Source of the DNA: Lepidodermella squamata
Lineage: Eukaryota > Animalia > Gastrotricha
Assembly: GCA_047495785.1 (NCBI GenBank)
Contig: JBLDXI010000003.1
Span: 496,001-560,000 of the forward strand
Reading direction: 5' to 3'
Length of the DNA stretch: 64,000 nt
The translations under genes and the position numbers were made by a program. How positions within the stretch are numbered: the first letter of the stretch is position 1; each line of letters opens with the position of its first letter. Of this stretch, positions 5,959 through 64,000 are shown piece by piece. The notes under the pieces were generated by a model that was not told the DNA's origin, ran no database searches, and saw only the letters and a program-made list of their open reading frames with translations.

Positions 5959-8900
5959 TCAAATCGCCATGAACAGGTATATATTAATTCCAAGCAGAGC
6001 TGCGAAAGCCAGCAAAAACGCGACCATATCAACAAGTCGGATGAAAGAGATCTTCCGGCCTTTCACTATTGTCAGCTTCGACGAGATGAGCTTGTTTTTC
6101 TTATCAGCAGTTAGATTCGTCACAATAATCTCATAGACCGTGATGGCTGATACAAGGGCGGATAACATGAGAACGTAATTCGTGTACAACAGCTGTTTAG
6201 AATTCTGGGCGACACTGCTCAGAACATCAGACTGAGCTACAACCAACGCTAGCATGACAGTCGAGGAAAGAACCGGCCGGTCTGCAACATCAGGCTCCAT
6301 AAGGAAGGAACCGAAAGCAACAAAAATGAGTAGATAGCAAGGAATCATCAAGTTGACAATGAAATAAGTTGGATCGCGTTTGTATGTCAGGGCGATTTTG
6401 CCATACGAAACAGGGGCTCCAATTCGACACGGAGATGCGCAAGTTCCACGCATCGTTCGAGCATTCATCAGGGTCCACATGCCATTTGAAAGTGAATCAT
6501 AGGACCTGACGTAGACGCCAGCTATAGCTACAAATGCCGCCGGCTCGTCCAGCAAGAAAGTGAACTCGCAGGTCTGAGAATCAAACGGGAATTTCGATAA
6601 ATCCATCTTGCAGGCTGAGGAGAAGGTTCCAACCCGGTCCCAGTGGAAAAACAGTGTTCGATTCGGTCGTGTTGCGTAATACATGATTTGAGCTTTCTCC
6701 CCGAAGTTGCTCAGGTAAACATCGGTCGTAGAATTCGGCAAGGTAATTTTTGGTCGCCAAAAGTTAGAGCTGCCCACCGGAATCACTCGCTCAGTGACTT
6801 CAGCACTAGGAGCTGTGTAGTCAGCGGAGCATGAAAGAATAGGCCATTGAACTAGCAGAGAGCCCCATAGAGAAATCTCACTCTCAACTTGGTCGAGTGA
6901 CACCAACCTCTCTGCGGAGAATGTTAGGTATATGGACGTGTTCACCTGAGGCGATCTCCGTTCACTGTCAAGGTATGGACACGTCTCTAGGTCCTTATAT
7001 TTGACAGCTGGTTCGTAATTTCCATCCAGAGGGTCAGGAATCGGAGCCTTGTCTGTGTCAGTTACACCGAGATCATCTTGAAATAACATTGCCATTGTTG
7101 ACAGCTTCGTGTTTGCAAAGTTCGAGGAAGATATTTCAGACAATGCAGTAGTTTGCAGATCGGGGGGTTTTGTAGAGGCAGCGGTTATCGAATTCCAGGA
7201 TGTTGACGATGACCAATCGGAAGCGTATTGAGGTGTTGTTGAGCCTGGAGAGGGGTTTGTCGACAGCCCTTCAGTCAACCGCCAAACCATTCTGGAAAAT
7301 AATTTGATCTAATCACAACTCATTTTCTATACACGCGACCAAAAATACGCTTTTCGATAGGCGACATAATTAGGGCTGCCCAATCCTTGAATCGAGTAAA
7401 GCATGGACTTTTGGTAGACAGCGTCTCGAAATCCTGGTACGGGGAAGTTCTTAAAGCAGTCGTAAGAAGCCATGGCTCCATTCGCTGGTAGTTTAGCCAC
7501 AGATGCGTTCACAGAATCGTTGAAATGCTGCACAACGATGCGGAAACTTGCATTCCCAGATGCATCGAAAAATGCGGTATCCCCACAGCCCGGTGATGAA
7601 GACATAGTTCCAGGGGGCGGGATCGTGACGTTGTCAGTTTTGTTAGGGTAATAGCCGATGTAAAACTCGCCTCTGTTCGGCATCAGATTCTGCCAGATTC
7701 CGAGCCCAATAAGATCAGTGATGCCATTGAAATCAGACGAATTGCCGATTTTTACTAAAATTAGATATCATTAAAAACATAATTTTTCTTGATAAATTCT
7801 CACATCTTTTCGGGTAAGTCTTAGTCAGGCCAAAAGCCAAGCCAAGCCAACCTTGGGATCCATTGGTGCTGCATGACACATCAATATCGAATTCGATGCG
7901 CCAGTCGGTGAAGAAATGATAATAATACTGCAATCATATACTCAGAATTTTAAGGTGGTAGGAGAAAGCAGAAATACACTTACCGATGATTCAAACTGTC
8001 TTGGTGAGCGAGTGCTGCTGATCAGCTCATAATTTTTCGAAGCGGTCAACGTCACAGGCTTGGTTGTAAAATTGTATTCACCCGTGTAGTCGTAGCTTGT
8101 ATACCCACTGAAAGTAGTCCCAGTGTTAGCTGGTAGGGCTAACGTGTACAAATCTGCAGGGGCCGGAGAGTCTTCAGTAAGGCCCCATAAGTACCTTAAC
8201 GAAAGGTTACAAAGCTTACGGAAATATTTCAAAATTGCTGTCACAGCAAATGATTGACGACTATTTGCACACGATACACAACAACAACGTAATTTCTATA
8301 TGCAACCTAAATTTCTGCATTGCTCAGCGCCCTTTTTCTTACCATCATTATTGCGTCAACTTACATTCGTTTTACAAGAGCATCTCCATCGGCTCCATTT
8401 ATAGCATAGAAACAGGGCATGATCCCGCCGTATAGCATTTGGTATCCGATGTATCCCACGTAGCCTGTAAACTGTATCACAGTTGAACAGACCGCTGCAC
8501 CAGAGCTAGAAACTGCTGTAACCTTGAAATAAAATTGAGAAAATCATCGCAATCTGGCAATCAATGAAGTCAACACAAACTGTTAAAACATCTAAGACGT
8601 TTTGGTAGATCATGCGAAATTGAGCGACGCCTGTAGATGAAATGACACAGCTTGAGTCAAACGTGAACGTATTTGTTGAGGCGTTGAAGGGCGGCGCAAC
8701 AGGAGGGCCAGTGTCCATAGAAGTCCTCCAAGTGATCACTACTTTACCATTCGGTTCCAACTTGAGGAAAGCCAATAAACCGAATCCATAGTTTGTGAAA
8801 ACATCGTAGTACGTTGACGAAAGAGACGAGACATCTAAGAGCCGAGAAAACAGCTTGAGATGTTGTGTTTAATGTGTAGGAAGCTTACTTGGGCTCATGC

Positions 8901-9422
8901 GACTATATGTTAACGAAAACCCAAACCAGGCATTTGATGATCCACTGGTTTTGTATCGCAGCTCAACTTCGTACTCCAAGCGCCAATTTGCCAAGTAATA
9001 TCCCACGTCCTATTCATGAATGGACAGATGTACAGATTACGCCTTGTTTTTCCGCTCAAGAAGAAATCACAACGATCGACTCAATATAAGGCATTGTGAT
9101 TTCTTCAGGGAAATTTAGTATCAAGATAACTCACGGGGCCTTGCAGAATCGCGAGAGATTCATTCGGTGAAGAGTTTGCCGCTGACATGGAGTTGAGTTG
9201 GTAGCCATTCGCAACTTTTCGACCCGAGTAGTATGTCGTGAACGAGGCATTGCTGTTGACCTGAGCATTTTCACCGTCGAATGAACAATACGGGCGGTAC
9301 GCTGGCGGCCCTTTGAAGCCGATCGGAAGCTGCAACGAGTTAGTATCCGGCGTGGGATCATAACCAGCACAAACTAACGCGGCCATTGCTGCTGGCAAGA
9401 TTAGAGAGCTTGCTGGAGGCAT
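5959..9422 (-). CDS. Cys-loop (pentameric ligand-gated) ion channel subunit with signal peptide, two tandem beta-rich N-terminal domains and a Ser/Thr stalk, about 964 aa
   Basis: Frame-consistent GT-AG model: 9422-9135, 9009-8889, 8834-8581, 8522-8365, 8194-7984, 7927-7804, 7754-7349, 7291-5959 (2895 nt). The last exon has FWRPKI (loop A), the Cys-loop CKMDLSKFPFDSQTC, pre-M1 KRDPTYFIVNLMIPC, M2 DRPVLSSTVMLAL and four hydrophobic helices. Confidence 0.85.
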
Positions 9423-11546: not shown

Positions 11547-11929
11547 ATGTATTCTCTCATCTTGCGGTTAGCACTTCTTTTGTCTCTTGGCGTTGCGTGC
11601 CATTCGATTGAATGTTACACTAAGGATGAATCCTGCTTCGAAGACGATACATTTTGCCGCGTAAGTTGCTGCTCTTATTCTCTGGTCGTTCGACTGCAAT
11701 GTGTCGCATATATATATAGAAAGTGGTACTGGGAGTTGCTGGATCGCAACTCGAGGTTAGGGACTGTGCAGAACGATGCGCTCCAGGATCAGTTACAGAC
11801 TCTCGAGGCGACACGTTGCAGGTTTACTGTTGTAGGACGGATTGGTGTAACGCGGCCAACTCACGGCATAACAATAGCTTATTGCTCATGACTGTTGCCT
11901 CTGCAATGACGCGTTACCTCATTTTATAA
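11547..11929 (+). CDS. Ly6/uPAR three-finger protein with signal peptide and probable GPI-anchor signal
   Basis: Two exons (11547-11660 and 11720-11929, phase 0 intron): MYSLILRLALLLSLGVACHS-IECY...C...FCR-KVVLG...RDCAERC...VYCCRTDWCN, followed by a hydrophobic tail. There are 8 mature-domain Cys and the diagnostic CCxxDxCN motif. Confidence 0.85.
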
Positions 11930-14095: not shown

Positions 14096-14348
14096 TTTAC
14101 ATTTCTAAAATGTCACAGCAACAACAGCCGCAGAAACGCAATACACTAATAATAATGGCATCAAGGCCGCCGCGGTCAAATTAGATTTATAAGTGTTATT
14201 TACCTGGGCACACAAATAAAAATACTAATAATAATAATAATTTCAGCATTACAGCTGAAAAATTTAGCTTGCGATAAACATTACAACATATTGTATGATG
14301 AAAACGAGCTTTGTTTTATCAGCTTAAATTGTCAAAAAATACGCAGAA

Positions 14349-15386
14349 ATGGCCTTATCAGATAGCGTTGTTGTAGTCACCCTGCGACGACTGGTAGACA
14401 TGGTCAATTTATTACAACTCGGCGTTGAAGAACAAACTATGACTCAAACGCGAGCTATTTACGACGCGATTCGTAGCAAAAATTCGAGAATTTACGAAAT
14501 TCTGAAAAATTTCCGCGATTTTTCTCAACCGCTCAACGACCACGGCTGGACGATTTTACACGCGGCGAGTTGCTATGGAAACGCTGAATTACTGGAATTT
14601 TTGTTTCAATTCGATAATTTCAACGTCGAAATTCGAACGAAAGACGGCAAAACTCCGCTTTTGATCGCTTGTGAAATCGGAAATTTTGATACTACTAAAT
14701 TTCTCGTCGAATCGGGTCACGCTTCACTGGCTGCGCAGGATAATAACGGAAATTCTGCCTTAATGTTGTCGATAACCACCGAAAATAAGTTATTAATCGA
14801 TTTTTTAGTCGGAAAATCAGCAATTTCCGATATCAGTCTCCGCAATCGAGAAAATCAATCAGCCCTGGATTCGATTATCGATTTTATCAACATCGATAGC
14901 TCACGTGAGAGGAACGATTTTTCACGATCGATTGCGTGTTCGATAATCAAAAAAGGAGGTCACGTGACTGCACATAATTTATGCAAATTTCTTCATTACC
15001 TCAGCGCGCCGTTTTTTGCCGATTGTCTCTCACTTTGCGTTCAATCTGGAAATCGGATAATTTTCGATGAAACTGATGAAGATCGGTTATTGGAAATTTT
15101 TCGGAGATTATCGACTTATCGATTTAATCGGAAATTCGATTTGATGAGCTGGCTCGTTTTTTCGCTTGATTTACGCGGAAATAAATTAGTGGCAATGGAT
15201 TCAAAATTTTCGAGCGGGTTTTTCGATCGATTCGCACTGTCAATCGACTCGCTTCAATCGAAATGCCGGCGGGTGATTTTGAACAGCTTAACAGTTGGTT
15301 ATGATAACAGGAAACAGGCATTTCTTGAACTCGGACTCATTTTACCTCCGGTTTTAATTGATTTTTTGAAATTTTCGAAGCAATAA
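14349..15386 (+). CDS. Ankyrin repeat and SOCS-box (ASB-like) protein, intronless
   Basis: Ankyrin motifs GWTILHAASCYGN, GKTPLLIACEIGN and GNSALMLS; C-terminal SOCS box SLQSKCRRVI...LPPVLIDFL. The true start may be a downstream Met. Confidence 0.85.
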   Translation: MALSDSVVVVTLRRLVDMVNLLQLGVEEQTMTQTRAIYDAIRSKNSRIYEILKNFRDFSQPLNDHGWTILHAASCYGNAELLEFLFQFDNFNVEIRTKDGKTPLLIACEIGNFDTTKFLVESGHASLAAQDNNGNSALMLSITTENKLLIDFLVGKSAISDISLRNRENQSALDSIIDFINIDSSRERNDFSRSIACSIIKKGGHVTAHNLCKFLHYLSAPFFADCLSLCVQSGNRIIFDETDEDRLLEIFRRLSTYRFNRKFDLMSWLVFSLDLRGNKLVAMDSKFSSGFFDRFALSIDSLQSKCRRVILNSLTVGYDNRKQAFLELGLILPPVLIDFLKFSKQ

Positions 15387-15497: not shown

Positions 15498-17024
15498 TTA
15501 AAAATTGAAATTGAAACTTTTCCTGCAGCGGCTTACATTGGAGTTGTCCCAAGAGGTTAAAGAATCGACATTGGGCGAAAAAATAGCTACATCATCAGTG
15601 AGCAGTTTATTAAATTGAATGCCGAGCAATTGCACGGAGGCCGGCAGCGCGGTTGCAGCACGGAAATGTGAACGTATGTTCGCTAACCGAACCTGAAAAT
15701 ATTCGAATTTTTATCATTCAAAAATTCGCATATACACCTTTTTTCCTTTGCAATTTCATTATTTTTATTAAAGAAAAACGCGTTTATTTTTTCATGATCA
15801 TCAGCGTATTCATTTAATTCATTTTCTTACTTTTTTCTACCTAAGAATTTACTCGATCTTCGAAGGTTCGCTGTATGCGAATACGAAACCCGAATGGGAT
15901 GAATTATATATCAAATTGAAGCTAGATATATAATCTTTTCAAATATGCGATCAGATCGGCAAAATCATTATTTGTTTCGCAGAAACTAAGCAGTAAGTAG
16001 AATGAACTGCAAAGATGTTTTCCTTGGATAGTTTTTATATTTTATAGGTATAAGGCCCCTCCCTCCTCCCCAAAAATGATTAGAACAATCAGGCGAAGGT
16101 GATATCTCGAGTAGAAGCGATAGAACCTCAAAAAATTTGGCTTTAGTAGCATTTTGGGCAATAGCTTACGCGGGTGCTGAGGTAGTTTTCACAAATGTTG
16201 CTTTGGTTTCTTCATGAAATGATGAAATTAGCGAAGACTAAGTAATAGAATAGTTCCTTAGCAGTTATTTGTTGAAAAATAAACATAATTGTAGGTAAAA
16301 TCAGAAGAAACTTTCCGAACAACCAGTCGGCTAAAACGTTGAATACCTTCAAGAACAAAATAGCATCCAGTATTTTAATATCACAGCTAGATAGATTATA
16401 TATCTAGCTTCAATTTGATATATAGTTCATCCCATTCGGGTTTCGTATTCGCATACAGCGAACCTTCGAAGATCGAGTAAATCCTTAGGTAGAAAAAAGT
16501 AAGAAAATGAATAAAGTGAATACGCTGATAATCATGAAAAAATAAGCGCGTGTTTCTTTAATAAAAATAATGAAATTGCAAAGGAAAAAAGGTGTATCAA
16601 TTTTCCTGAAATTAAATTAAAACAAATAATTTCTAAATAATTTGGAAACAATTTGAAAAATCGAAAATTTGAAAAATCGATTTTGAAATTTGTTGAAAAT
16701 ATAAACAATTCTACGTAAATATTTATTTCATTAATTTTCATAGTTCTTGCGAGAATTTCCCAATGAAATCACCTTGGCGTAGTAAATGGTACCGCCGGCT
16801 TCTTGCGTAGCGTAGCTTTCGACGCAGAATTCACTAATAGTAACCGAGCCGTAAAAAGCAGCAAAAGCTTGTCTCACCTGGGGCGATGCGATAATTTTCA
16901 CGCTCTCATCACCCTGACTGTCCGGTACTTGGACAGAACCAGCGCCGCCGGCGTTTGCAAACTGGCAAAGAGTGGGTGAAAAAGCGAAACTTGCAGCGAT
17001 TAACAAGTTGCAAAACAACAGCAT
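15498..17024 (-). CDS. Stefin-like (type 1 fold) cystatin with signal peptide
   Basis: Exon 1 17024-16773 (signal peptide, GG, ...VESYATQEAGGTIYYAK) joins in phase 0 to exon 2 from 15692 (VRLANIRSHFRA...LP...VQLLGIQFNKLLTDDVAIF). This matches the stefin pattern Y.TQVVAGTNYYIKV...H.KVF..LP...LTGYQ..K...D.L..F. The 3' end may include one more short intron. Confidence 0.75.
15735..16594. mobile_element. Long-TIR non-autonomous DNA transposon (Tc1/mariner-type, TA TSD) in the cystatin intron
   Basis: About 200-bp near-perfect TIRs CACCTTTTTTCC...GGAAAAAAGGTG, flanked by TA on both sides. Confidence 0.85.
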
Positions 17025-23421: not shown

Positions 23422-25472
23422 TCAGAGGCTGGCAGTGGTCGCAGCACGGAAATGTGACGTTTGAGCTATTCGCTATCCGAACCTGAAATAAGTCGAATTG
23501 TTCATCATTCGAAAATGCCAACAAATCACTTATATATGAACTAGAGAGGTAAACATTTATTAAAAAATGTGGACTGCCTAATTCAATAATAATTAGGTTG
23601 CCTTGCGACACAGTGAGTATACATTATATTTCAAAATTATTTGTGTTTTTGTGGTTGAAATAGATATGGATTGAATCTTTAAGAATCGATTTTGAAATAT
23701 CAGAAAGTAGTTGTTTTGGTAATTGCCATTCCTTAAAAAGTTTCAATGTTTGTTTAGTTATAGTTCCACGGCTACCCAGATAGAGTCCTTGCACGGTAAC
23801 TTCGTCGAGCTTCCATTGTTCACAGATGTCGTTTGCACAGGGTTCGTAAATTGATTTTTTCTCCTCGTCAACAGTGTCGAATTGATCGTTTCGTCCTTCG
23901 AAACGGATTGTTGGATCGATAACCAGGCCTTGTTTTCCCTTGATGACGAGAATGTCAAAACGATGATTTCGCCCTGGTCCGGCTACGCAATGGCCTTCTT
24001 CATACACCCGGTGTCCTTGATTTCTGAATGCATTAGCAATCATTCTACGGACAGTGTTGTGCCGTTTGTTGATGAGGAAGCTATTGTGCTTACAAGCGCC
24101 TAACACATGAGCGAGGGTTTCTTTCTCGGCATCACCGTAGCGACACCGGGTAGTGTTGAGGGGCTTGTTTCCACCATGAGCTGCTGCAACGTCGGCACAG
24201 TTCGTCGAGAATTTGATGGCCGTTGTCCATTCCGAAGTCGATAATCCAGTTTTGTTTGAGATCCAGTCGTTTCCAGCCGGAAAGTCAGCGAACTGACTTA
24301 CACCTTGCCCTTTTTCAGGCAATTCGCACCAACTCTCGAAAGCACGATCCCGAAGAATAGATCGCGCTTCTTTTGCTGTCAAAGGCTTCTCGGAATCCGG
24401 ATCGGCCTGAACGTCCAGTTTATCCAGGCAGTCCTGCATCTCCGACTCAAGATCGCGGCACAAAGGGATCAGGGGTTCGTCGACGGAGAGCAATTTCATG
24501 CAGATATTGTAATGCTGAAGAAAAGCCTCCCATTCGGCTTTTACGAGTCCGAGACCACGCTTCCGTTTGCTTGCGTAGAAAAATCCGTCTGGCGTTGCTG
24601 CTGGTATTTCCGCTATCTGCTTCACCGCCCTACGAAACTCTATGTCGACGCGATGAAGGAAAGATGCTGTCAGTTTTCGTAAGGGAGCGTTTTGAAGCGG
24701 ATAAATGAGCTTAGGCCATATGAATTGGTTGATAATGTTTAGCTTCTGGTCGGGGTGTAGAACGGAGCAATCAACAAGTCGTTGCAGATCGCCCATGACT
24801 TGAATGGTAACTTCAGACTGATCAAACGTCAACTCGTCAGCAAATGTCACTCCAAGATATTTGATAGTCTCCGTAGGGTGCAGAACAGGAATTGTTTGAT
24901 CTTCGTCTATTATCAATGGATCCGTTGACAATTCGCCATTTTCAACGACGATGGCTTTGTATTTGCGAACATTATTATTATTATAAAGATTATTATTATA
25001 AAGATTTAAAGCTTCTTTCTTTTACCGTAACCAAATTGATGATGCGGAAATTTAAATTAAATAATTCCTGGGGGAAATTTAAATTTAAAACTTAAAAGAA
25101 ACAATTTGAAAAATTTGAAAATTTAAACTAAATAATCATATAATTTAAATTTTAAATTTTTTAAGAACATTTTGAAAATTCAATTTTTTTTAAATGTTGA
25201 TAATAAATGCTCATCACCTTTGCATGGTACCAGCGGCAATTAGCGATGCGTAGCTTTCGACGTACAATTTGCTACCAATTTGAACCGAGCCGCGAGCTGT
25301 AAAAAGCAGCAAAATCTCGTCTGACTTGGCACGATGTGATAATTTTCACGCTCTCATCATCCTGAATGGCCGGTACTTGGGCAGAACCAGCGCCGCCGGC
25401 ATTTGCGAGCGGGCAACGAGCCAGCGAAATAGCGAAACTTGCAGCGATCAATAATTTGCAAAATACCAGCAT
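23422..25472 (-). pseudogene. Second cystatin copy, disrupted
   Basis: Exon 1 (25472 to about 25218) closely resembles the 17024 copy but frameshifts after FAAFY and has lost the Q-x-x-x-G loop. Exon 2 from 23482 (VRIAN...HFRAATT.LP) is cut off at about 23422. Confidence 0.75.
23555..24970 (-). mobile_element. 5'-truncated non-LTR retrotransposon with restriction-like endonuclease (R2/NeSL group)
   Basis: ORF 24931-23624 contains the RT end IKYLGVTF, thumb region GLGL, a degenerate zinc knuckle CRYG...ETLAHVLGAC, RHN, and the endonuclease motifs FDILV...IDPTIRFE...EEKKSIY. The 3' UTR has a hairpin CCTAATT...AATTAGG and AATAAA. It lies in the cystatin pseudogene intron. Confidence 0.9.
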
Positions 25473-31484: not shown

Positions 31485-32115
31485 GGAATACTCGAGGTTC
31501 GAATGGGAATGACAGCTTAGTAAAATCTCTTTGTGCGAGCGCAGCACAGCTCAGTGTGTTGAGTTGAGGAATAAAATCATCAGGTATCACTGGTTGCTTT
31601 TCCATACCGCGGGGTCGAGTGGTGGAAACAGGTCGGGTTGACCGGCCGGTAAATTGACTGGTTGCCGGTTGGGCCAGGTCGCGGTTTGGGTATGGATCGG
31701 CTAAATTCTAGCCAGTAAACGGAAATTTTCGGCGGGAAAGTGGACTCTCTCAAAAAGGATAGAGGTGAGATGGAAGTAAGAAGGAAGGGTAGTAATAATC
31801 CTTCTGCACCAATCGCCGCAGTGTTTTCAGTGAAATTCAGGGTTTAAGAGGTTCGCAATTATTGAAAGACTAGTTAAATTAAATAGAGGAATGAGGGGGG
31901 TATCGTACCCCCAGTTCGGCAGCGCAAAGAGGAAAAACCCCCAAAAAACCACAGGGGGGACCTTTTGGCCGAAAATTGGGGCCCGAAAATACCCCCTAGT
32001 TCTAGGATCCCTTCGCACACTGGCAGGTCAAACCCCGGTCAACCGCGTCGGTACACCAAATGCCGGTGGGTGACGTGGATGTGGATTGGGTCGACCAGTT
32101 GCAACCTCGGGGGCT

Positions 32116-32314
32116 CAACTGAAGGTTACACTATCGACTTTTACCCTTTCAATCTTCGATTGTTGCCAGCCTTCGGCGGAAAGATGTTGCCGGAAGATGA
32201 ATAATTGCGCATTCCATGTGCCCAGGTCGAAGGTTCTGCTATTAGTAATGCTGATGTCGATGTATCAAGGTCAAAAAATGATACCAAGATATTTCACGTT
32301 TTTATAAATGTTAG
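32116..32314 (+). pseudogene. Deleted SGNH 3' fragment (repeated at 48922-49120)
   Basis: Has the same internal deletion junction as the 19437 fragment. Confidence 0.7.
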
Positions 32315-32525
32315 CAAATGGGAAGCAAATAAAATGCATATCTTTTTTACCCTGCAGTTTATTAACAGAGCAGGCATTTTCACGAGGCGTTAACAAGCGC
32401 CTGAGTATCTATAGGGAGGCGTGCAAAGATTGCCGTTTGAATTTTCCACTTGTTTCAAGCCAAGAAAAAATATACATTTTATCGGTTATCCTTTATCAAA
32501 GTTTGAACAAGTAATATGCGCAACG

Positions 32526-34193
32526 TCACTTTAAAATATTCGGCAGCGGGCTAACAGTATTTGTTTGCTGAGCTATTTGCGCTGCAACAGACAGAAACCC
32601 TCTCCGGATGTGTAAAGTGAGGTCGTAGCATTTCGAAAACAACTCCATCTTGCGGCATGTCTCCTCCGCATCGCCTGTTGACTCAGATGACCACAACATG
32701 AGCAGCGCCTGGTACATCTGCTTCTGTAAAGGAACAATCCGACCAGCTATCGATGCGTCATCAACTGAAAGAAACAATCGTGAAGCTTAAAGAAAACTTG
32801 AAGAAAGGTGGATGAATTACCATGAAAGAATAAGATTCCTAGAATGAGCGAACTCTCAATGAAGGAAGGATTCAATTGAGCGAGACAATCAGCCAACCGG
32901 CTACACGCGACGAAAGTTGACTAAAGGAGAAATTTAAGAAAAATCTGTCATTTTCCCTCCTAGAACGCACTGTTTCGAAACCTTGATTCTGATCTGAATG
33001 CTGAGCCTCTAAAACTTGTTTAAAATTTTTGTCGGTGATATATGTGAGGGAGAATCCTAGGGACATTGGACATTCATTTGAGTTTTGAGTAATTCAGAAT
33101 CTAAATTCCAATACTGAAGGCATAGAAAGTGGGGTGCTCGAAATCTGCCTGAAATAAGCTAGGCGAATGGACGATTTGGGCCAGTTTTGGTACAGCCTTA
33201 AAGGTGATAGATACAGACAAACGGATTTCAAAATCGCGATCAGGGCCTTCGTAAACCCCTAGAAATGCCGTCAAATATTTTTCTTACTGCAGATAAAAAA
33301 TTCTTTAAGAAAAAGACAAAAGCTTACTTTCAGCATCGGGTAAGATTGAAGGGTTAGTGTCGAAAGCTCGTTAGACAGGCCGAGGGTTGAAGGAGGGCTC
33401 CCGTTAGGCAGGCTGTTGAAGAGAGCTGTCACGTGTATCACGCTTGTCGATCTAATCGCATCCAATTCTGCTTGCGAGAGACAAAGTCGCTCTATTCCTA
33501 TGCAAAACTAACACTTTGCGGGAAGGGTTTGATGACAGACATGGACATTCCAACCTTTGAAAAAAGTGCCATATTCTTCACATATCTTTGACTCGAATGC
33601 GAGTTGTTCGATGCCAAGTTTGATCACAGTTTCCATGTCATTGATATCAGAAGTAGGTCTTTTCAGCGGTACTGATTCAAGGCCGTGAAGAAGAGTAAAC
33701 GCATTCGCTGTGCACAACATCATAGCTTCAGCGCTAGATCTGTGATTAGTCTGCGGGTTCGAGATAATTTCAGGAGAAGGCAGTCGGACGCTACTACCAT
33801 TGTTAGAATTCATCGCTAGAGAATCTTCATTCGACGTGCTCGGATTTGTTATCTTTTCGCCAGTTGGCTTTGTCATGTATTTACCTAAAATAATGAGAAA
33901 ATGATTGATAGAGGAGGCAGGGATTTATACTCACTTTGTAATCCAGCGGCCAAGCATTTGTCGAAACGGCATCTCTTACACATTTGTCCCTTCAAGTGAC
34001 TGGCTAATTTGCAAGGTGAACGCTTTTCTTGGTGGCCTCCGTCGGCGTCTTGCAAACAGACTAGCACATGAGGTTTTTCGCAGTTGCGCCTGAAGAATTT
34101 CTGACACGCCTCGCATGTTGAAGGCTGGTAGTCTCTACGCCTAGGAACGATAGAGGTACAAACTCTACACAGCGCACCGTCGATAGGAGGCAT
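32526..34193 (-). CDS. Divergent nuclear hormone receptor, paralogue A (5 coding exons)
   Basis: C4 zinc fingers CRVC...CEACQKFFRR...C...C...CKRCRFDKCLAAGL, hinge, then LBD-like helices FFKGIERLCLSQAELDAI (H3-H4 signature region), LNPSFIESSLILGILFF (H8) and LQKQMYQALL (H9). Confidence 0.88.
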
Positions 34194-34400
34194 TTATTCA
34201 CGAGGTAAAAATGTGTTTCTAATGCAAGCATATGAGGCGCGACGCCCTGCAAAAAATCGATGAAACAAGAGTATTGATGAATGACATCTGAGCTGCCTCT
34301 AGTACGATGCCGCTAGGTCAACAGCAGAAAAAGTGGAAATAATCGTTTCGTATTAAGGCTGAAAATAGGAACGTCGTATTTGTTACGAATGTGCGTTATA

Positions 34401-34579
34401 TCGTTAGCGGCGCGCCAAAACAACCACTTTACTATTTATAGATTTTAAATGGATAGTACGATCGAGAGTAGAAAAAAATCAGTGCTCAAATGGCCTATCG
34501 TACTTTATCATTACGTTCGGCGACTTCAAGTACGATCGAATGAATCATCTAAGTGGCTGTTTTGTCGCGCCGCTAACGA
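34401..34579. mobile_element. MITE upstream of receptor A (repeated at 51207-51385)
   Basis: 29-bp TIR TCGTTAGCGGCGCGCCAAAACAACCACTT (2 mismatches), flanked by TATA on both sides. Confidence 0.85.
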
Positions 34580-36796
34580 TATATCATTATGAACAGCCAG
34601 GGCAGCCAATGCATCATCTAATTATGCTTCAACCTGAGCTACCAGCTTAAAAAACTAATTAATTAATTAATTAATCAATTGTTTGAATCCAATTACGATA
34701 TTTCTAGCTAGTTGCATTTTCTCGACACATGTACGCTAATTTCAAATTGAATTCCAAAAACCCTACTTGGAAATCTTGTAAACAATTTGAAGTCGAATTT
34801 GATGAACTTTTCTTTGTTCGGGTAGCTGCTTCGTCGCCTCGCCTTGGAGTTTGACATTGTGGGGATTGTATTTCTTCTATGGGAAGGATATTTCTACGCT
34901 TTCACGCCAGAGCAGCTTCCTTGATTAGTTGAATATTGGATTGGTGTTCAGTCTACTTTCTGAGGGCAATGCAATGTAAAGGCCTTCCAAACCTCTGCTT
35001 GAAACTGGCCGGAATCATCTAGGTGTGACTCCAATGAAAGACAATCGGCTCTTTTGGCTGGTTAGTTAGTCGTCATAAAAATATTCTGTGCAGTCCAAAT
35101 AGTTTGTCAAACATCTACCGTAAAAAGTGGATTAGCAACTGTTGCTGGTGAAAACATCACCGTTTACCTCACGGGCACAGAATTAATCAGATTATCTCGG
35201 TTTCTTAAGTGAAAATGATAGCAATAACCCCATATTATACGAATGCAAAAGGATTCGCTGTTCGCTAACCAAAAAGTCGCTGTTAACAAATTATTCATGA
35301 CTTTCAGAGAAAGCAGTAATCGACATCAAGCACAACCGTGTCTCTTGTGTTCTTTCTCCTTAGAACCACTCACCGGCTTGAAATTCTAATTTGATAAACT
35401 TGTAGGTGACTTGTAGAACTTGTAGAAAACCTGGAATATGGGCTTGTTTACATCCATCCCTCGGGGCTAATAGTAAATGGACTCGAAACTTCCTATCTTC
35501 TTCTTGCAAAATTCTTCGGATTGCAAAAAACTGCTTATTGATCGCGCGATTTCGCGGTGACTGCAAAAAATGGCCGATTAATAATTATTTCAAATAAAAA
35601 AGCAGCATCTAGCCATTACGCGCAGTAATTTTATTCGTGTCCCTTTTGCTCCTCAGTTTTACGAAATTTCTCATGTTTGAAGACATTTTTTCAACATATT
35701 TTGGAAAGCTTGGTTAATAACGACTGAACGACTGTAAACACTTTTAAACACTTGAAGTCATGTTTAAAAACAGGCTTCTCTGCATTTTGAATGGCTTTAA
35801 TTCACCGGTTTATGATTCATCCGCTATCGTCACCCTCCCCTAAACCTTTGTGGTAAAACGGTTCCTCTTGTTGTGCGAATATTACCATCACAAGCCAACA
35901 ATGAACCAGCGGAGGAGGAAAAATAAAACTTTTCATTGTTTCATTGTTTCATCCGCTATACTAGGCTTCACGCTGTCTTTACTACCTATTAGTTTATTTT
36001 AATTTTTTCCATGTAAATCATGGGATTTCTCCTCGTTGAATGCTGTTCACGTTAATTTTTACCAGCCGTGTTTAGTTTTTTTATTCAGCTTTCGAATTGT
36101 TTGCATATATTTTTTGCTTCATAATGGGCGATGGCTACGTTGTGCTTGCTAAAAAATAGAGCAGCTTCATTCATTTTTTTGCGAGCAAAAAATCACTTTG
36201 ATAGCGTAATTTTTTGCAATCCGAACAATTTTTATGAGTGTCGAGTCCCAAGTCCATTTCCAGGTGATAGATGACAAGTAAAAGCAGCTTTTGACGTGAC
36301 TGTAGAGACAGAAGCATAGGACTTGTTACTTGTCACCCGGCACCTTGAAATGTATGCAAACAAGGTCAAATCCGAGCATTTCAACGAGGCCAACGATATG
36401 TCCACCAGACGTTTCAAGAAAATTGGAGGCGTGGTAATTTGGGATAAATTGGGTTAAAATCTCCACCTGGAATGACTTGTCAGTTCCGCTCAGTTTGCTG
36501 TTATTATGAGGGATACAGTGGAATCATTACCGAATTATTGAATTCATTACCAAACATAATTGAGTTCCAAATCTCAAATTTTAAGACGCAGCCTTCAACT
36601 ATAACCATAACCAGTTAAATTACGAATAATTTGGTTAGGTATTGAATTAAATGAAATTGGGTACTGGCGTATTGTACTGTATTCTCATTAATCATTTCAG
36701 GAAACGAAAAAATGCTATGTGTATGTGGTGTGTAAAATCTCTCTTTTTCTCCCATGTGATCTTCAAACTTGTTATTAAATTTTAGATAATGATATA

Positions 36797-38398
36797 ATGA
36801 AAATTCCAAAACAGATATATTCGAATACAGCAGCTATCGCGGCTGTATGCTTATTAATTATGGAGGCCTCCCTGTTATTCACCAGCACAGAAGTATTCCG
36901 GTTATTGCCGTTGTCAAGCAGCCTACCCTCTGCCACAGCCAAATGCCTTGCGAGCATCGTCGAATCGCCTTTCCGCTCGGCTTACAGCCAATTTTATGCC
37001 ACTTCTTCCTCGATTATTCGCTTCAGTGATGTCAGCAACTTGCAACGAGCTTTCGTGCGACTGTTCAACAGCACATCGCATCGGAAATTGCGACTGGTAA
37101 TCGTCGGTGAATCTTCGTCTGTTCCGCATCCCACTTCTATAGTGAGTTGAAACTTGGGTTTTTATTTTGTATCGGATGACAAGTGTGGCTTTTCATGATA
37201 GGAATCTGCTTTTCTCATGCTGTGCGATTGGTTGAACACCACACTATCGAAAAATGGACGCGAAGCTGAGTGTGAAAATTGGGCAGTTGGTGCAACCCCC
37301 AGGTTACTTCTAGTTCGACTCAGCTTATAGGTTCAGTTTTAAGCACATAAATTGCAGCCTCTTCTACGCATACTGCCATGCCGCAATGTTCGACGTTCGA
37401 AATTTTGACATTGTCCTAATTCAAGAATCTTGGAATTGGGAGCAGCACTATACGAATCCGAACGAAAGTCACCTTGGCATTCTAATAGACTCGCTACGCC
37501 GCGCCAACCCAGCGATTCAAGTCATCGTTTTTGATTTCCCAGATACGCGTTTGATTAGTGATCCAATTCCAGAATCTGCAAACTACGTCACGAATGCAGC
37601 TGTTGCCGCAGAGTATGATGTGCCCTTGATCGGTGGAATAGGCTTACTATCGAATGCTGCGAACTGGTCACAAGAAGTTGCCATGCATCAGGCAGATTTC
37701 ATCGGTAATTTAAATCTATAGAATTCCAAGTAAATTGTCTCTTGAATTTCGCAGGTTACTACCTCTCAGCAGATGCTTTCCACCCCGGGAACCGAACTCA
37801 TTCTGTTATGGCAGAGTACTTGGTCAATTTCTTCAAGCAATCTCTCATCCAATTACTCGAATTGAATGAACTTCCGACTTTGAGCCAGCCAATCATTAGG
37901 ACAAACTATCTTTCCGACTGCTTTCTGACTTACGCAAGTCACGAAGGCCGCGACAGCAGGAGCTTGGGGCAGAATGCTTCACTCCGTTATGATTGGCTGT
38001 CCTATCAATCTTTGTCGCCCGGGGAACAACTGAAGATTTCGCTGTCGAATTTCACCCGTCCAATCTTTGATTGTTGCCAGCATTCGGCAAATAAATGTTG
38101 CTATCTACCTAGATTCGCTATTTCACATCGCTCCCATTCGAATCAAGGCTCTTCTGTTGTTGTGATTGCTGCGAGGATTTCCTTGGCAAACGGTTCAGCT
38201 TTCTCGAGGAATTATACTATTTCTGCTCAAGGCACAAATCACTTTGTATCTGCGCCGCCTGAAGATGAATATTTGAGAGTTCCGTGTGCCCAGGTGGAAG
38301 GTTCTGCCATTAGGATGGCTGATGTCGATGTGTCGAGCTCGAAAAATGATACCACGACATTTCAAGTTTTCAGCCTGATTGCGCTTTATAAATGTTGA
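36797..38398 (+). CDS. SGNH/GDSL-family hydrolase with N-terminal hydrophobic anchor (4 exons)
   Basis: Block I VIVGESSS, block II NWAVGATPS, block III DIVLIQESWN and block V DAFHPG, joined by three short GT-AG introns. Confidence 0.8.
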
Positions 38399-38729
38399 CG
38401 AAAGTGACAAATAAAACACAGCTTTTTTAAGCGCCGCCGTTATTGGGAATTGAGGACAAACTAGCACACTAAAAGTTATCCCGCTTCATTTTTGAAAATG
38501 TAGACATTTGATTGAATTTGATTGAATACTTGGCCCTAGGCCATACTTTTTTAGGGTATCGAAACCCTGAATTTCATGCTCCACCTTTAGGAAATTTCTT
38601 TCTCAACTAAATTACCCCGAATGACGAGGTTCAGGTTTCAGGTGGAAACTTTCCGCTCATCTAGCCCAAATGGCAGACAAATAAACCTTTCATTTTTTAA
38701 TAAAGCTTGACCAACTTGGTAGCACAATG

Positions 38730-40484
38730 TCACTTTAAAGGTAAAATATTCGACAACGGGCTGAACGCATTTGTTTGCTGAGATAATTCTGCTGCCACTG
38801 ACAGAAACCCTCTCCGAATTTGTATAGTGAGGTCGTAGCATTTCGAAAACAATTCCATCTTCCGGCAGGTCTCCTCCGCATCGCCTGTCGACCCAGAGGA
38901 CCATAGCATGAGCAGCGCCTGGCACATCTGCTTCTGTAAACGAACAATTCGACCAGCTATCGCTGATTCATCAACTAGAAGAAACAATCTGAAGCTTATA
39001 TAGAGAACTCGAATTAAGTCGAGGAATTACCATGAAAATATAAGATTCCCAGAATGAGCGAGCTCTCAATGAAGGACGGATTCATTTGAGCGAGACAATC
39101 CGCCAACCGGCTACATGCGTCAAAGGTTGACTGAAGGAGAAACATATTTACACAAATCGTCGCTGTTCTTCTCTTCATAGAACGCGCTATTAAAGCTATT
39201 AAAACAAGGAGCAGGAATTGAAAAACCCCATTACTTCAACATTCCCTCATGCGAAGAATATCTACTGCCAAAATGGTTATAATGGCCATAACTGACGTCT
39301 GACGTCACACCTCATCGATACATTTTGTGCAAAATTGGCCCATGCACCATATGATTGACCTAACCATCACAATTCATCCATTTTTGAGAATAATTATAAT
39401 AAAAGTTCGGAGTTCCCAACATTGGGATAAGGCCTTATAGACATCAAGGGGGTAGTAAACTTATACGGGATTTCTTTAACAACACAGGCTACCGTTCTAC
39501 AAGACCGTTCAGGTCTTTAGGAAAACGAAATCGGCTTATACGGGATTTCTTTAACAACACAGGCTACCGGCTACAAGACCGTTCAGGTCTTTAGGAAAAC
39601 GAAATCGGCTTACTTTTAACATCGGTAGAGATTGAAGTGTAAGTGTCGAAAGCTCATTAGACATGCCGAGTGTTGAAGGAGGACTCCCGTTTGGCAGGCT
39701 ATTGAAGAGCGCCTTCACATGAACTACGCTTGTCGATCTGATTGCGTCTAATTCTTCTTGCGTTAGACATAGTGGCTCTATTCCTATATAGAAAACAACA
39801 CTTTGCCGGGAAGATTTTACCATTACAATTTCAACCTTTGAAAAATTTGCCGTATTCTTCACATATCGATGACTCGAATACCATTTGTTCAAGGCCCAGC
39901 TTAATCAAAGTTTCAATGTCATTGATAACCGCAGTGGGTCTTTTCAGCGGTACCGATTCAAGACCGTGAAGAAGCGTGAAAGCATTCGCTGCCAACAACA
40001 TCGTATTTTCAGCTCTAGATCCTCGGTTAGTTTGAGGGTTCGAGGTTATTTCAGGATATGAAAGTCGAACCCCACTACCATCATTCGAATTCGTCGTTAG
40101 AGAATCAGAGGTCGACGTGCTTAACTTCCTTTTCTTTTTGCCATGTTCTTTCGTCATGAATTTACCTAAAACATTGAGAAAATGATCGATTGGGGGAGAA
40201 TAGGATTTCGGCTTACTTTGCATTCCAACAGCCAAGCATTTTTCGTAACGGCATCGTCTACACATTTGGCCTTTTAGATTACTGGCTAATCTGCAAGGCG
40301 AGCGCTTTTGCAGGTTGCATCCATTGGCGTCTCCTTGATTATGTTCACAGACTAGCACATGAGGTTTGTCGCAGTGGCGCCTGAAGAATTTCTGACATGC
40401 CTCGCATGTTGAAGGCTGGTAGTCTCTACGCCTAGGAACGACAGAAGTACAAATTCTACACAGAGCAGCGGTGACAGGGGGCAT
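38730..40484 (-). CDS. Divergent nuclear hormone receptor, paralogue B
   Basis: Same exon layout and CEACQKFFRR...CRRCRYEKCLAVGM motifs. Confidence 0.88.
39460..39608. repeat. Two-copy 75/74-bp tandem duplication next to a receptor B splice donor
   Basis: CTTATACGGGATTTC...CGAAATCGG occurs twice in succession. Confidence 0.9.
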
Positions 40485-41190
40485 TTTTTACTCAAAACAA
40501 AAAAGGTGTTTATAATACAAGCATAAATGCAGCACTGTGGCGTGCGAGACCCTGCAAAAAATCGATTTAGCACGAGTACAATTATTAATGAATTACATAT
40601 AGTAAGTTGTAGGTTGACACTAGGTCATAAACAGAAAAAGGAGTATCATATCATATTACAATTGGAACAACGCGAATGTCATTTTTCAGTTACTTCAACG
40701 ATCAACTTTATAAGAAACGGAAATTTTTATACTAAGCTCACTTTATACTAATCATGACTTCCAAGTCGAGCACTCAACTATGGGATATTGTTGTTGAGTA
40801 CAAGAAAAGTGGGCCTTTAACCTTTAAATTCGGCTTAAATCGCAAGGTAATCAGAGCGATGACCTAATTTAAAAAATGCACGCGTTTCCTTTTGCAATTT
40901 CTATGCCCAAATGAATGCATTGGATTATTAAATTGTAAGTAATTATAACCTGAGCCGTACTCTCCCTTCCTTACTATAAACTCTGTCGAGATAAGGCCGA
41001 CTCAGCCTTCTTCTAAGCTTCGCTGTTCGACGTCTACTTCGGCGGCTAATTCCATCGGTTCTTGGGGTCAAGAATCAACTTCATCTCGAAAATAATGACC
41101 CGGTATGGTGGGATATCTTAATTTGCCTGAGCATAACAGTTGAATGGTATTCTAAGAAAAAGCAGTAGTTTGGCGGTTAAGTTTTATTAG

Positions 41191-42876
41191 TCACTTTAAT
41201 TTTAAAATGTTTGACAGCGAGCTGAACTCTTTTGTTTGTTGAGATACTTCAGCAGACACGGACAGAAACTCTCTTCGGATAAGTAGAGTGAGGTCGTAGC
41301 ATTTCGAAAAAAGTTCCATTTTTCGACACATCTCTTCCGCATCGCCTGCTGACCCAGAGGACCATAACATGAGCAGCGCCTGGCACATTTGCTTCTGCAA
41401 ACGATCCATCCGCCCAGCTATCGATGAATCATCAACTGAAATGAAAAAGTCTGGAAGCTTAAAGAGAACTTGAATGAAATCGGAAGAATTACCATGAAAA
41501 AATAGGATTCCTAGAATGAGCGAGCTCTCGATGAAGGAAGGATTCAATTGAGCGAGACAGTCAGCCAACCGACCACAGGCGAGGAACGTTGGCTGGATAA
41601 CAATACCATATAATGTTGAATCAAGCCCAAGTTGGACAAAATCTTCGTATTGTTATGTTCACTATTGACACACTCTCTAAGACCCTCATATGGGGTAGAA
41701 AATTTGGCAATCGTTTTTCCACACCACGCAATTCATAGTATTTACTGAGCTGATTGAATAAACATCTGCAAAAAACTGTGGGGCTCGGAATTTAGCAGTT
41801 AGTTTCTTGGAGAAAATATCGGGAATTAGGAATTCGAAATTCAAATACCGTTTTGCATCTTATCACCCCATGGAACACTGGATTTTCATTCAATTCGAAG
41901 GCGGGCCTACTAGACTTCCTTTAGGTACTTATTTGCAGGATTTTTGCATAGTGCACAACTGCCGTGAGGTCTTGAAAAGGGCATCGAAGAAAAATGAAAT
42001 AGCTTACTTTGAACATTGGGTAAGCCTGGAGTGCAAACTTCACAAGTTCGTTACACATGCCGAGGGTTGAAGGAGGACTCCCGTTTGGCAGGCTGTGAAA
42101 GAGCGCTTTCACATGGATTACGCTTGTCGATCTGATCGCATCCAGGTCTTCTTGTTTAAGGAAGCATGGATCTATTCCTTGAATGCGAAACCACCTCTTT
42201 GTAAAGAATTTGATCGCAAGCTATGATATAACAACCTTTGAAAAATGTGCCGTATTCTTCACATATCATCAACTCGAATGCCATTTGTTCAAGGCCCAGC
42301 TTGATCATTGCTTCGATGTCATTGATATATGATTCAGTGGGTCTTTTCAGCGGTACTGATTCAAGGCCGTGTAGAAGCGTGAAGGCATTCGCTGTACAGA
42401 ACATCATAGCTTCAGCTCTTGATCCTTGATTAGTTTGCGGGTTTGAGATTATTGCAGGTGACAGTTGAACGTCACTATCATCAACGGACGTCGTCGATAT
42501 GGAATCATCATGCGACGTGCTTAGGTTCCTTTGCTTCTCGCCAGGTTTTTTTGTCATGAATTTACCTTGAAAAAATAGGTAAACAATTGATTTAGGAGAA
42601 GAAGAGATTTAGCTTACTTTGCAATCCAACAGCCAAGCATTTTTCGTAACGGCATCGCTTACACATTAGGCCCTTTAGATCGCTGGCTAATTTGCAAGGC
42701 GAACGCTTGTTTTCGCCCTCCTTGTCTCTATCTTTGGCACATACTAGCTCATTAGGCTTTTCGCAGTTGCGCCTAAAGAACTTTTGGCACGCCTCGCATG
42801 TTGATGGCTGGTAGTCTTTGCGTCTAGGAACTACAGAAGTACAAACTTTACACAGAGCAGTGTTGACAGGAGGCAT
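41191..42876 (-). CDS. Divergent nuclear hormone receptor, paralogue C
   Basis: CKVC...CEACQKFFRR...CKRCRYEKCLAVGL plus the homologous LBD exons. Confidence 0.88.
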
Positions 42877-43082
42877 TTTTTACTCGCTGAAAAATTTGTT
42901 TGTAATACAGAGCTATACAGAGCGACACGCTGCAAAAAATCGATTTAGCATGTGTAAAAATACTAATGAATGGCATCCGAGCTAGTATACTACTATAGGA
43001 TGCGATTGGATTAACAACAGAAAAACAGGAATTATTATTGATGAAAAAATACGACCGTATTTTATTATGAATGTGCGTTATA

Positions 43083-43831
43083 AAGTATGACCAATATTTT
43101 TTTTGCCTCGCATTTTTTCAATAACTTCGTGACCATGAGGAATTTTTTGGAGCGGTTTTCACCATTTGATAAATCAGGTCTTCGGTAAACTTTCCTCAAA
43201 TTTTCGTCAAAATTGGTTCAGAGCGAAGAAATTGGTGACAAAAATGCCGTTTGCGGTTTCAATTAAGAATTCTCATTTTTGAAAAATGGCATTTTTCAGG
43301 TTTTTTGGTTTGGCGGCATCATCCTGTGGAAAAGCTTTATTCGGTCATTTTCTTCGTTGGGAATTAGATCAATAACACGTCTCCAACAGAGAAATTCATC
43401 TTGACACCCACAGAAAAGTTCTTATCCACCAACAGCGATCCGAAATGGCTTTTTGAATTTTTTTGAGTGGTCTGTGCCAACCTGGTGATGCCGCAAGTTT
43501 CGGACAGTCGTATGATTTTTTTTTTGGAATCGGTGACTCCGATTAGTCACAGGCCATCTCTCAAACGGCTCAAATCCTCAGGGAAGAGTGATGATCAGCT
43601 CTTGCCATATTGGACGCAAAAATGCCATTTTTCAAAAATGAGAATTCTTAATTGAAACCGCAAACGGCATTTTTGTCACCAATTTCTTCGCTCTGAACCA
43701 ATTTTGACGAAAATTTGAGGAAAGTTTACCGAAGACCTGATTTATCAAATGGTGAAAACCGCTCCAAAAAATTCCTCATGGTCACGAAGTTATTGAAAAA
43801 ATGCGAGGCAAAAAAAATATTGGTCATACTT
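43083..43831. mobile_element. Young long-TIR non-autonomous transposon upstream of receptor C (repeated at 59891-60639)
   Basis: About 214-bp apparently perfect TIRs AAGTATGACCAATA...TATTGGTCATACTT with a TA duplication. Confidence 0.9.
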
Positions 43832-44787
43832 TAGATAATTATAAATATTCCGTAATTTTTGTACGATATAAATGACTAGTGCTGAAATTAATACGGAAGG
43901 CGCTGCAATAGCCATGTTTTGAAAGAACGAAAGTCAGCTTTTAGCTCAGGAGTAATCCTAATTCGGGTTCGGGTCTTTCCAGCTTTTTTTGTTCCACCCA
44001 TCTTGCTGTGGTTCCGGATTCAACAATCGGCCGTCTATATTCTCGTATTCATCGAAATATTATCATCAAATTCTAGTCCTCACAATTAAAAATTCAAGCT
44101 CTTAGAGGCTGTGCGCAGCTTGGAACCGGCAACCGTCTATCCTCGCGGGTCTAAACAGGTGCTCCATGTCTCCTTCCTGTTCTTTTTTCTTCAGCTTCTG
44201 ATGCCGTACTTTCGCTGGTCACGCCTCGCACTTTTTACCTCAGTTTGCTCCCATACTCAGTTTGGACAGAGAACAAAAAGTACCCAAAGAATGAAGAAAG
44301 CATGCCCGTCATCAAATGTTGCCCGTCGGTGAAATTAACTCAATCGACAGAATTGATTTAATAATTTTACTTCACCGAATGTCCGTGGCAAGCCTTGACA
44401 ATTCGGCCGAGTTTTCGCTTGTGAGCTGACAGCGAATGAGTTGACAGTTCACCGAGTTCTTGTTTCGTTAATATTGCTTTTCTTTCCAAACTACTTGTTC
44501 CTCGCGTATTGTTTGTCTTTTTTAAATTGAGACTAAGTTAATGTATGTTTTTCTATAATTTTGCTTGATTTACGGATGGAAATCTGATCAAATACTTGAT
44601 CATTAATTTTTATAATAGGCGTGAACCGTGAAGCCTTAAAATTCAGGGCTCCGACATTACCTTAGTAATTTTTTCTCCACTAGGCTTTCCTTAAATAACG
44701 CTGTTCAAATAATATCTAAATTGGAAGAAAAATAGACATTTTTTCGGCTAATTTTTATTAAAGCTCGACCAACTTATCAGCAAAATG

Positions 44788-46534: not shown

Positions 46535-47081
46535 TTTAAAACGATGAAAAATGTGTTTATACTGGAGAGAGGTAAAAGCAGTGCTATAGGGTGCGACACC
46601 CTAAAAAAATCGATGTAGAACGAGATGAATGACATCTGAGCTGCTACTTCTAGTTCAACAACTGAATACAGGAGAATCATCTCTCATTACGGACGAAAAA
46701 ACACGAGCAGATTTAATTATGAATTCGCGCTATAGATCTGCTTCTTCGGTTACCATGTTTAACGATTGAGATTTGAACTAAATGTGATTTGAACTGAAAG
46801 CCTGAACGCCGGAGACGCAGCAAGTTTTCAGCTTTAGCTCGGGGTTGCTCCGGGGAAGTTTGCAACATTTTAATAGATAATTGCATTCATCGCCTCAGCC
46901 TAATCTCAAATAGAACCACGGGATTTGCTGATAAGCGATGTAAGAAAAGATGAACAGCGCGAAAACTCCCCTGATATTTATTTTCGCCTTCTGATGCTCA
47001 ATTTCTCAACATCTGGCGCCTGGCTCACATGGTGTTTGCAGCATAGGCAATAGTATCTTAGAAGCTATCTGACGCTGAATC

Positions 47082-55204: not shown

Positions 55205-55535
55205 CGAAAGTGACAAATAAAACACAGCTTTTTTAAGCGCCGCCGTTATTGGGAATTGAGGACAAACTAGCACACTAAAAGTTATCCCGCTTCATTTTTG
55301 AAAATGTAGACATTTGATTGAATTTGATTGAATACTTGGCCCTAGGCCATACTTTTTTAGGGTATCGAAACCCTGAATTTCATGCTCCACCTTTAGGAAA
55401 TTTCTTTCTCAACTAAATTACCCCGAATGACGAGGTTCAGGTTTCAGGTGGAAACTTTCCGCTCATCTAGCCCAAATGGCAGACAAATAAACCTTTCATT
55501 TTTTAATAAAGCTTGACCAACTTGGTAGCACAATG

Positions 55536-63889: not shown

Positions 63890-64000
63890 ATGGCTGGAGT
63901 TAACTTCCGATTACTAGAGGCCTGCTACGAAGGGCGAATCGATCAAGTCGAAGCTCTTCTACTCTCTGGCGAGTGCGATGCCAACAACCCCGCTAGTGAA
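63890..64000 (+). CDS. Ankyrin-SOCS gene duplicate, 5' part only (cut by the window edge)
   Basis: MAGVNFRLLEACYEGR... identical to the sequence from 47082. Confidence 0.8.
   Translation, partial: MAGVNFRLLEACYEGRIDQVEALLLSGECDANNPASE

Follow-up and report, generated by a model that had tools for sequence, protein, structure and literature searches.

A predicted Cys-loop receptor subunit with two tandem, probably beta-sandwich-like repeats on a Ser/Thr/Pro-rich stalk in the gastrotrich Lepidodermella squamata

Lectin-type domains have been described on Cys-loop receptors of animals: according to the available part of PMC8221624, the lobster genome encodes 66 orphan Cys-loop receptors, described as a class whose members carry CLECT, pentraxin and LDLa domains; some of these chimeras are highly expressed in brain and antennules, and the authors regard the class as unique to lobster and related crustaceans and propose for these neuro-immune receptors that pattern recognition is coupled to the channel. 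Expansion of the lobster ligand-gated ion channels is also reported in the accessible part of PMC13286009. Here we describe a gene predicted in the gastrotrich Lepidodermella squamata, within a stretch of 64,000 nucleotides (the window; assembly GCA_047495785.1, contig JBLDXI010000003.1, positions 496,001 to 560,000 of the forward strand), in which a Cys-loop channel is preceded by two repeats of ~245 amino acids (aa), called heads below, and by a stalk. Pentraxin has a ConA-like fold, which is also the fold suspected for the repeats described here. The lobster chimeras resemble this gene as animal Cys-loop channels of an expanded family with lectin-type additions (PMC8221624, available part), whereas the addition here consists of a single unnamed domain present twice in tandem and of a Ser/Thr stalk free of cysteine, and the domains that mark the lobster class (CLECT, pentraxin PF00354 and LDLa) gave no Pfam match in single exons at expectation values (E) up to 1 and 10. 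Because lobster Cys-loop receptors carry lectin-type domains, we do not claim a first occurrence in animals, and the premise of the original prediction that subunits of animal pentameric ligand-gated channels (pLGICs) have no such fusions is contradicted by the published lobster receptors (PMC8221624). That prediction also left room for the architecture being already described in animals, which holds for lectin-type fusions as such, PMC8221624 being, as far as its available part goes, the only source in the literature searched that describes them; the exact arrangement of two tandem ConA-like repeats, mucin-like stalk and intronless channel of nicotinic acetylcholine receptor (nAChR) type was not found there, although the supplement of the lobster paper (table S9) may list closer architectures.

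Other known systems share single features with this gene. Cephalopod chemotactile receptors derive from nAChRs and act as contact sensors (PMC11526382), and like the present gene they have an nAChR-derived, intronless channel region, a remodelled pocket and a lineage-specific expansion; however, the available parts of PMC11526382 and PMC13174522 mention no added ectodomain, whereas ~570 residues precede the ligand-binding domain here. Bivalve and lophotrochozoan nAChRs are expanded and intronless, which has been attributed to retroposition, and thus share the intronless channel region and the multi-copy state; a few of their gene models carry other domains, but those named are dynamin and GAIN, and the word 'lectin' is absent from the available main text (PMC6896357). 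In the accessible portions of the respective papers, extra N-terminal domains of pLGICs are treated as prokaryotic by Tasneem et al. (PMC549065) and in the 2025 DeCLIC paper (PMC12664993), and terminal regions were discarded by Jaiteh et al. (PMC4795631). In the channel DeCLIC, to which the gene had been compared, the pLGIC core is preceded by a tandem pair of homologous lobes of beta-sandwich type, as is suspected here, but it is bacterial and, by the available text, its lobes are 8-stranded Ca2+-binding jelly rolls much shorter than 245 aa (a loop of the second N-terminal domain, NTD2, is numbered 291–296; PMC12664993), whereas the repeats here are longer and stand on a stalk, and exon 7 and an exon 7/exon 3 profile have no PDB sequence match below E 0.3. 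DeCLIC is thus an analogy only.

Evidence for one gene

By predicted splicing, exons 1–8 on the minus strand (9422–5959) form a frame of 2895 nt, encoding 964 aa and a stop (Table 1). All seven introns are GT-AG and 49–170 nt long, with phases 0, 1, 0, 2, 0, 1 and 2, and introns 3 and 7 have GT donors of weak consensus. The stop-free splice of seven upstream exons in frame to the channel open reading frame (ORF), as originally predicted, was reproduced, and all six of the peptides quoted with it are present in the translation. The predicted product comprises, in order, a signal peptide, the two repeats, the Ser/Thr/Pro-rich stalk and the Cys-loop channel. The channel exon was said to lack a signal peptide of its own, and indeed no hydrophobic stretch follows its early Met codons (aa 522, 587 and 589; best 10-aa hydropathy 0.3–0.7 versus 2.4 in exon 1).

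The extension is an internal duplication, as had been proposed: local self-alignment of repeat 1 (aa ~44–283) with repeat 2 (aa ~304–535) scored 105 at a period of ~247–248 aa, whereas 1000 shuffles reached at most 68 (mean 38, standard deviation 6.4). Introns of phase 0, 1 and 2 had been said to match between the repeats; the aligned residue is indeed identical for introns 1 and 5 (phase 0) and for introns 4 and 7 (phase 2), but the phase-1 introns 2 and 6 lie ~2 residues apart, and repeat 1 alone contains an extra phase-0 intron (intron 3) that had gone unmentioned. In repeat 1, a phase-2 intron precedes the last conserved strand, which lies in exon 5; in repeat 2, a phase-2 intron likewise precedes the corresponding strand, which opens the channel exon. 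Thus repeat 2 is complete only if exon 7 joins exon 8, because its closing strand belongs to exon 8. The predicted stalk of ~60 aa was also recovered; it is free of cysteine, and Ser, Thr and Pro make up to 60% of a 30-aa window.

The DNA run X2 contained the exact sequence and many variants of it, and several variant copies with 85–95% identity leave the exon layout unchanged. The 143 contigs divide by identity into 30 at or above 99%, 15 at 95–99%, 43 at 90–95% and 55 below 90%, with up to five variant contigs at a single position, and the gene is present as a single copy in the window. Among the 12 indels listed (of 17) for the whole gene, nine lie in predicted introns and three in exons; the exonic ones are a 3-base insertion at 8113 in exon 5 of a variant copy and a −1/+1 pair two bases apart, all keeping the frame, and the uncompensated frameshifts among those listed are confined to predicted introns. 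Between 7150 and 7960, all 12 indels listed (of 18) fall within introns 6 and 7, although introns make up just 139 of 699 bases; they represent 10 places in few contigs and are not independent. Intron 7 contains six indel places among the variant copies. Exonic substitutions were synonymous in 21 of 39 cases over the whole gene (among 40 changes listed of 333) and in 12 of 25 in exons 6 and 7 (among 40 listed of 134), compared with 23% expected, and 17 of the 32 listed for exon 8 were synonymous. One change that would by itself create a stop belongs, when read by hand, to a set of three neighbouring changes with equal depth, which jointly give Phe. Two variant copies have stalks that are 51 and 42 nt shorter, in each case without a shift of frame. 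The variant copies more likely stem from paralogues, although they may instead be divergent alleles of pooled animals.

If the upstream exons were a separate gene for a secreted protein, and the channel a separate or decaying gene, the fusion would be an artefact of gene modelling. Such a split would agree with the weak-consensus donor of intron 7, with the fact that no RNA junction was seen over any predicted intron, and with the variant contig spanning intron 7, which has just 24 aligned bases in exon 8 and falls below the 31-base standard for a bridge. However, repeat 2 is finished only within exon 8, which has no signal peptide and whose listed substitutions are synonymous in the proportion given above, and the 57 nt of intron 7 are too short for a gene end and a promoter and contain no AATAAA or ATTAAA; we consider two genes very improbable. 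A single fused gene, as originally predicted, is on the sequence well supported by the frame, the matched introns, the completion of repeat 2 in exon 8 and the 57-nt gap, and its eight exons are very probably transcribed as one mRNA.

Two further data sets were set aside. In run X1, which is RNA only by guess, 27 short contigs covered parts of exons 1, 2, 3, 7 and 8; they contained no splice joint and several opposite-strand joints, and were not used as evidence. Summed contig depth was higher over exons (Spearman 0.59, 15 bins), but depth is unreliable for this purpose and was not relied on.

Fold of the repeats and nature of the channel

By sequence, the repeat is a ~245-aa domain without a relative among 1.84 billion representative proteins when exon 7 is the query. 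The lone match of exon 7 among these representatives was rejected, being an insect VWA-repeat protein whose score was summed over four repeated copies, as was a metagenome locus whose match lies on the strand opposite the long ORF. No related locus was found in bacterial genomes, no extension exon matched Pfam (exons were scanned singly, which lowers sensitivity), and the PDB searches mentioned above, with exon 7 and with an exon 7/exon 3 profile, yielded no chain below the threshold given. In the Atlas, exon 7 lies near the GH43_C2, DUF1349 and PelX_N clusters, and all 10 best named matches share a family or clan (0.83). We built profiles from 11–29 bacterial members each of six families and compared them with the two-repeat alignment: 3keto-disac_hyd, Laminin_G_3, GH43_C2 and Lectin_L-type, which we take to belong to the ConA clan, and CBM9_1 and F5_F8 as controls. 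The six family hidden Markov models scored at most 5.5 bits against the repeats. In hhalign comparisons with column shuffles (n=20), three of the four ConA families beat all 20, and for the two controls 1 and 8 shuffles scored as high; the summed score of three ConA-clan profiles also exceeded all 55 block shuffles. When the threshold is set low, an end-to-end alignment over 202 columns joins the repeat profile to that of the L-type lectins.

These results make a ConA-clan, L-type-lectin-like beta-sandwich the best lead for the repeats, and we lean towards this fold. Several observations weigh against it. The Atlas scores are below 0.9, one third of shuffled proteins reach equal clan agreement, and the Atlas leads of exon 3 are unrelated to those of exon 7. 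Laminin_G_3 scored below 16 of 20 shuffles, hhalign probabilities did not exceed 6.4%, block shuffles (n=55) matched the three ConA families singly by 1, 6 and 5, and the three summed families were picked after the scores had been seen. The profile comparison is itself insensitive, with GH43_C2 missing two members of its own clan, and AlphaFold models of the partial repeats, from exon 7 alone and from the exon 7/exon 3 alignment, had pLDDT values of 31 and 34. In L-type lectins, conserved acidic residues bind sugar and metal, that of the ADG motif sugar; these are not kept in the low-confidence alignment, so that a ConA fold, if present, would not necessarily bind sugar. Sugar binding by the repeats would be less probable than the fold. 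The ConA/LamG-like assignment of the original prediction thus survives as a lead on its ConA side, and its alternative, a DOMON-like fold, received no support in one weak test, where CBM9_1, which we assume to be DOMON-like, was matched by 15 of 55 block shuffles.

The channel region, of nicotinic type but very divergent, shows features of the Cys-loop superfamily. Its ligand-binding domain matches PF02931 (Neur_chan_LBD) with E 8.1e-10 and 38.9 bits (cut-off 26), the loop C748–C762 has FPFD, which fits [FY]PxD, an Arg before M1 aligns to the nAChR alpha subunit, and four membrane helices appear as hydropathy peaks at aa ~827–857, 860–882, 888–915 and 934–964. The Pfam membrane model PF02932 gave no match in the channel; the closest PDB matches are nAChR subunits (E 6.8e-14), with an alignment that spans M1–M3. 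M1 retains its proline and M2 its Leu 9', and the M3–M4 loop is short. The start of M2, A-D-R, aligns with G-E-K of the muscle alpha subunit, with an acidic residue at −1' and no Pro at −2', and the channel is likely to be cation-selective. An unusual Asp at 17' and the missing Pro at 23' speak for caution: because of them, gating may be atypical or partner subunits may be needed.

Acetylcholine is an unlikely ligand, because the loop-C cysteines are not adjacent and most positions of the aromatic box, which binds acetylcholine in nAChRs, are not kept. Loop C has C-X3-C, with two cysteines four residues apart, and neither the vicinal cysteines nor the aromatic box of an nAChR alpha subunit was found: the aromatics of loop A, loop B and the first of loop C are not conserved and the final Tyr of loop C alone has a Tyr as its counterpart, as read from the PDB alignment, in which a gap makes the loop-B register uncertain. 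The product is thus predicted to be a subunit of a pentameric channel that is probably non-cholinergic. The channel region occupies a single exon without an intron, whereas the heads have seven introns; this would fit the insertion of a retrocopied channel into a gene for a secreted lectin-like protein, or its recruitment by such a gene. Searches for channel homologues, in which no candidate among 7992, 8000 and 52 scored, also missed ordinary nAChRs that were recovered from the PDB and are silent on absence; the metagenome search found no related channel locus.

Gene features and the 64-kb window

Table 1. Predicted features of the receptor gene, in window coordinates
Feature	Position	Strand	Description
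Exon 1	9135..9422	-	Start codon; signal peptide predicted at aa 1–~20; beginning of repeat 1; aa 1–21 hydrophobic
Exon 2	8889..9009	-	Repeat 1; aligns with exon 6, 9 of 42 columns identical
Exon 3	8581..8834	-	Repeat 1; aligns with first part of exon 7, 19 identical columns
Exon 4	8365..8522	-	Repeat 1; counterpart of the end of exon 7
Exon 5	7984..8194	-	Closing strand of repeat 1, then a short linker and the beginning of repeat 2
Exon 6	7804..7927	-	Repeat 2
Exon 7	7349..7754	-	Main part of repeat 2
Intron 7	7292..7348	-	57 nt, phase 2; sole DNA separating extension from channel exon
Exon 8	5959..7291	-	Last strand of repeat 2, stalk, ligand-binding domain, four membrane helices; intronless
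Ser/Thr/Pro-rich stalk	7084..7263	-	aa ~531–590
Cys-loop	6568..6612	-	C748-X13-C762 with FPFD
Pore helix M2 (-2' to 20')	6217..6285	-	A-D-R in positions -2' to 0'; Leu 9'; Pro 23' absent
Candidate polyadenylation signal ATTAAA	5926..5931	-	28 nt past the stop

The window has the character of animal DNA, with short introns, ~41% G+C, a nuclear-receptor zinc finger (PF00105, E 8.9e-8) and ankyrin genes. Head to head with the channel gene, at a distance of 2.1 kb between start codons, lies a two-exon gene of the Ly6/uPAR (three-finger) type at 11547–11929 on the plus strand (signal-peptide exon 11547–11660, 59-nt intron, exon 2 from 11720), with a CCxxDxCN ending, a hydrophobic tail of the glycosylphosphatidylinositol-anchor type and matches to Toxin_TOLIP (E 7.5e-5) and UPAR_LY6 (E 1.5e-4). 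Ly6 proteins such as Lynx1 modulate nAChRs, but the adjacency may be chance.

A tandem duplication of 15,461 bp (31734–47192 and 48540–64000; 99.98% identity, period ~16.8 kb) reflects either a segmental duplication of very recent date or an error of assembly. It includes a cluster of divergent nuclear-receptor-like genes on the minus strand (33300–46600, again at 50100–63400) with 77–80% DNA identity, one of which gives the zf-C4 match at the E-value above, with a long insert. Two adjacent ORFs at 37314–38398 (plus strand; again at 54120–55204) have a DAFHP motif, which may point to an SGNH-type hydrolase, and no Pfam match. Single-ORF ankyrin-repeat genes lie on the plus strand at 14328–15386, with a weak terminal SOCS-box match (E 0.02), and at 47079–47960. 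A 465-aa ORF on the minus strand (23624–25021) has a CCHC motif, an endonuclease-like end and no Pfam match at E 0.01, and we take it to resemble the C-terminal half of a site-specific retroelement protein of the kind without long terminal repeats. Pairs of long inverted repeats at 15732–16597 (205 bp, 96.6%) and 43081–43833 (216 bp, 100%) resemble non-autonomous DNA transposons.

Possible functions of the heads

For the whole subunit we tentatively favour capture combined with sensing, which we hold to be possible rather than probable. A pentamer would show up to ten heads on likely flexible, glycosylated stalks and could bind by avidity; the heads would capture or tether surfaces or glycans and would not open the pore directly, and a particle, biofilm, mucus or matrix would be held close to the remodelled binding pocket, which would respond to a small cue other than acetylcholine with cation influx. 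The family might then detect contact at epidermal or sensory cells, as cephalopod chemotactile receptors detect it, but with a capture module of its own. Rigid coupling of heads to the gate is disfavoured because stalk length varies in frame among copies. Thus it is rather unlikely that the heads are themselves the sensing site, with binding of a glycan or microbial pattern opening or strongly modulating the pore, although the degenerate acetylcholine box calls for some other input, the lobster authors propose pattern recognition coupled to channels (PMC8221624), and the N-terminal domain of DeCLIC appears to speed activation and deactivation (PMC12664993). Against head gating, a Ser/Thr/Pro stalk of ~60 residues that differs by 14–17 codons among copies would be a poor rigid lever, and no functional test of the lobster receptors was found in the available part of PMC8221624. 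The boldest form, a family of ten-headed lectin-channels built independently in an animal lineage from a retrocopied nicotinic receptor, in which glycan or surface binding itself opens the cation pore, is unlikely; if it were true, direct gating by the heads would amount to an electrical sense, of taste or of touch, for polysaccharides, biofilms or the coats of prey.

The heads may also serve localisation only, anchoring or clustering, on matrix or on a partner cell, a channel that is gated by an internal transmitter or metabolite, a task that neuronal pentraxins or CUB/Ig proteins perform in trans elsewhere. The absence of the lectin acidic residue from the alignment and the Ly6/uPAR neighbour would suit such a role, and domains of the ConA/LamG type often bind proteins rather than sugars. 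However, 113 of the 143 X2 contigs are below 99% identity, and a fast-evolving environmental receptor fits this better than a synaptic one; no close database relative was found, although in searches that also missed ordinary nAChRs. We regard localisation alone as unlikely. Heads that stick to cuticle, mucus or substrate could also pull on the channel via the stalk, and the adhesive type of the heads, the extended stalk and the cation-type pore would allow such a tethered mechanoreceptor; but we know of no force-gated Cys-loop receptor and the multi-copy diversity suggests chemical specificity, which leaves this reading improbable. Capture beside a chemosensory pocket thus stays our tentative preference.

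The gene would be a clean test object for these readings, with stalked heads that can be removed without touching the channel and natural copies that vary in stalk length. If the lobster chimeras and the gene described here arose separately, lectin-type heads have been added to Cys-loop channels more than once in animals, and separate origins would point to a solution that recurs in the sensing of large or surface-bound cues.

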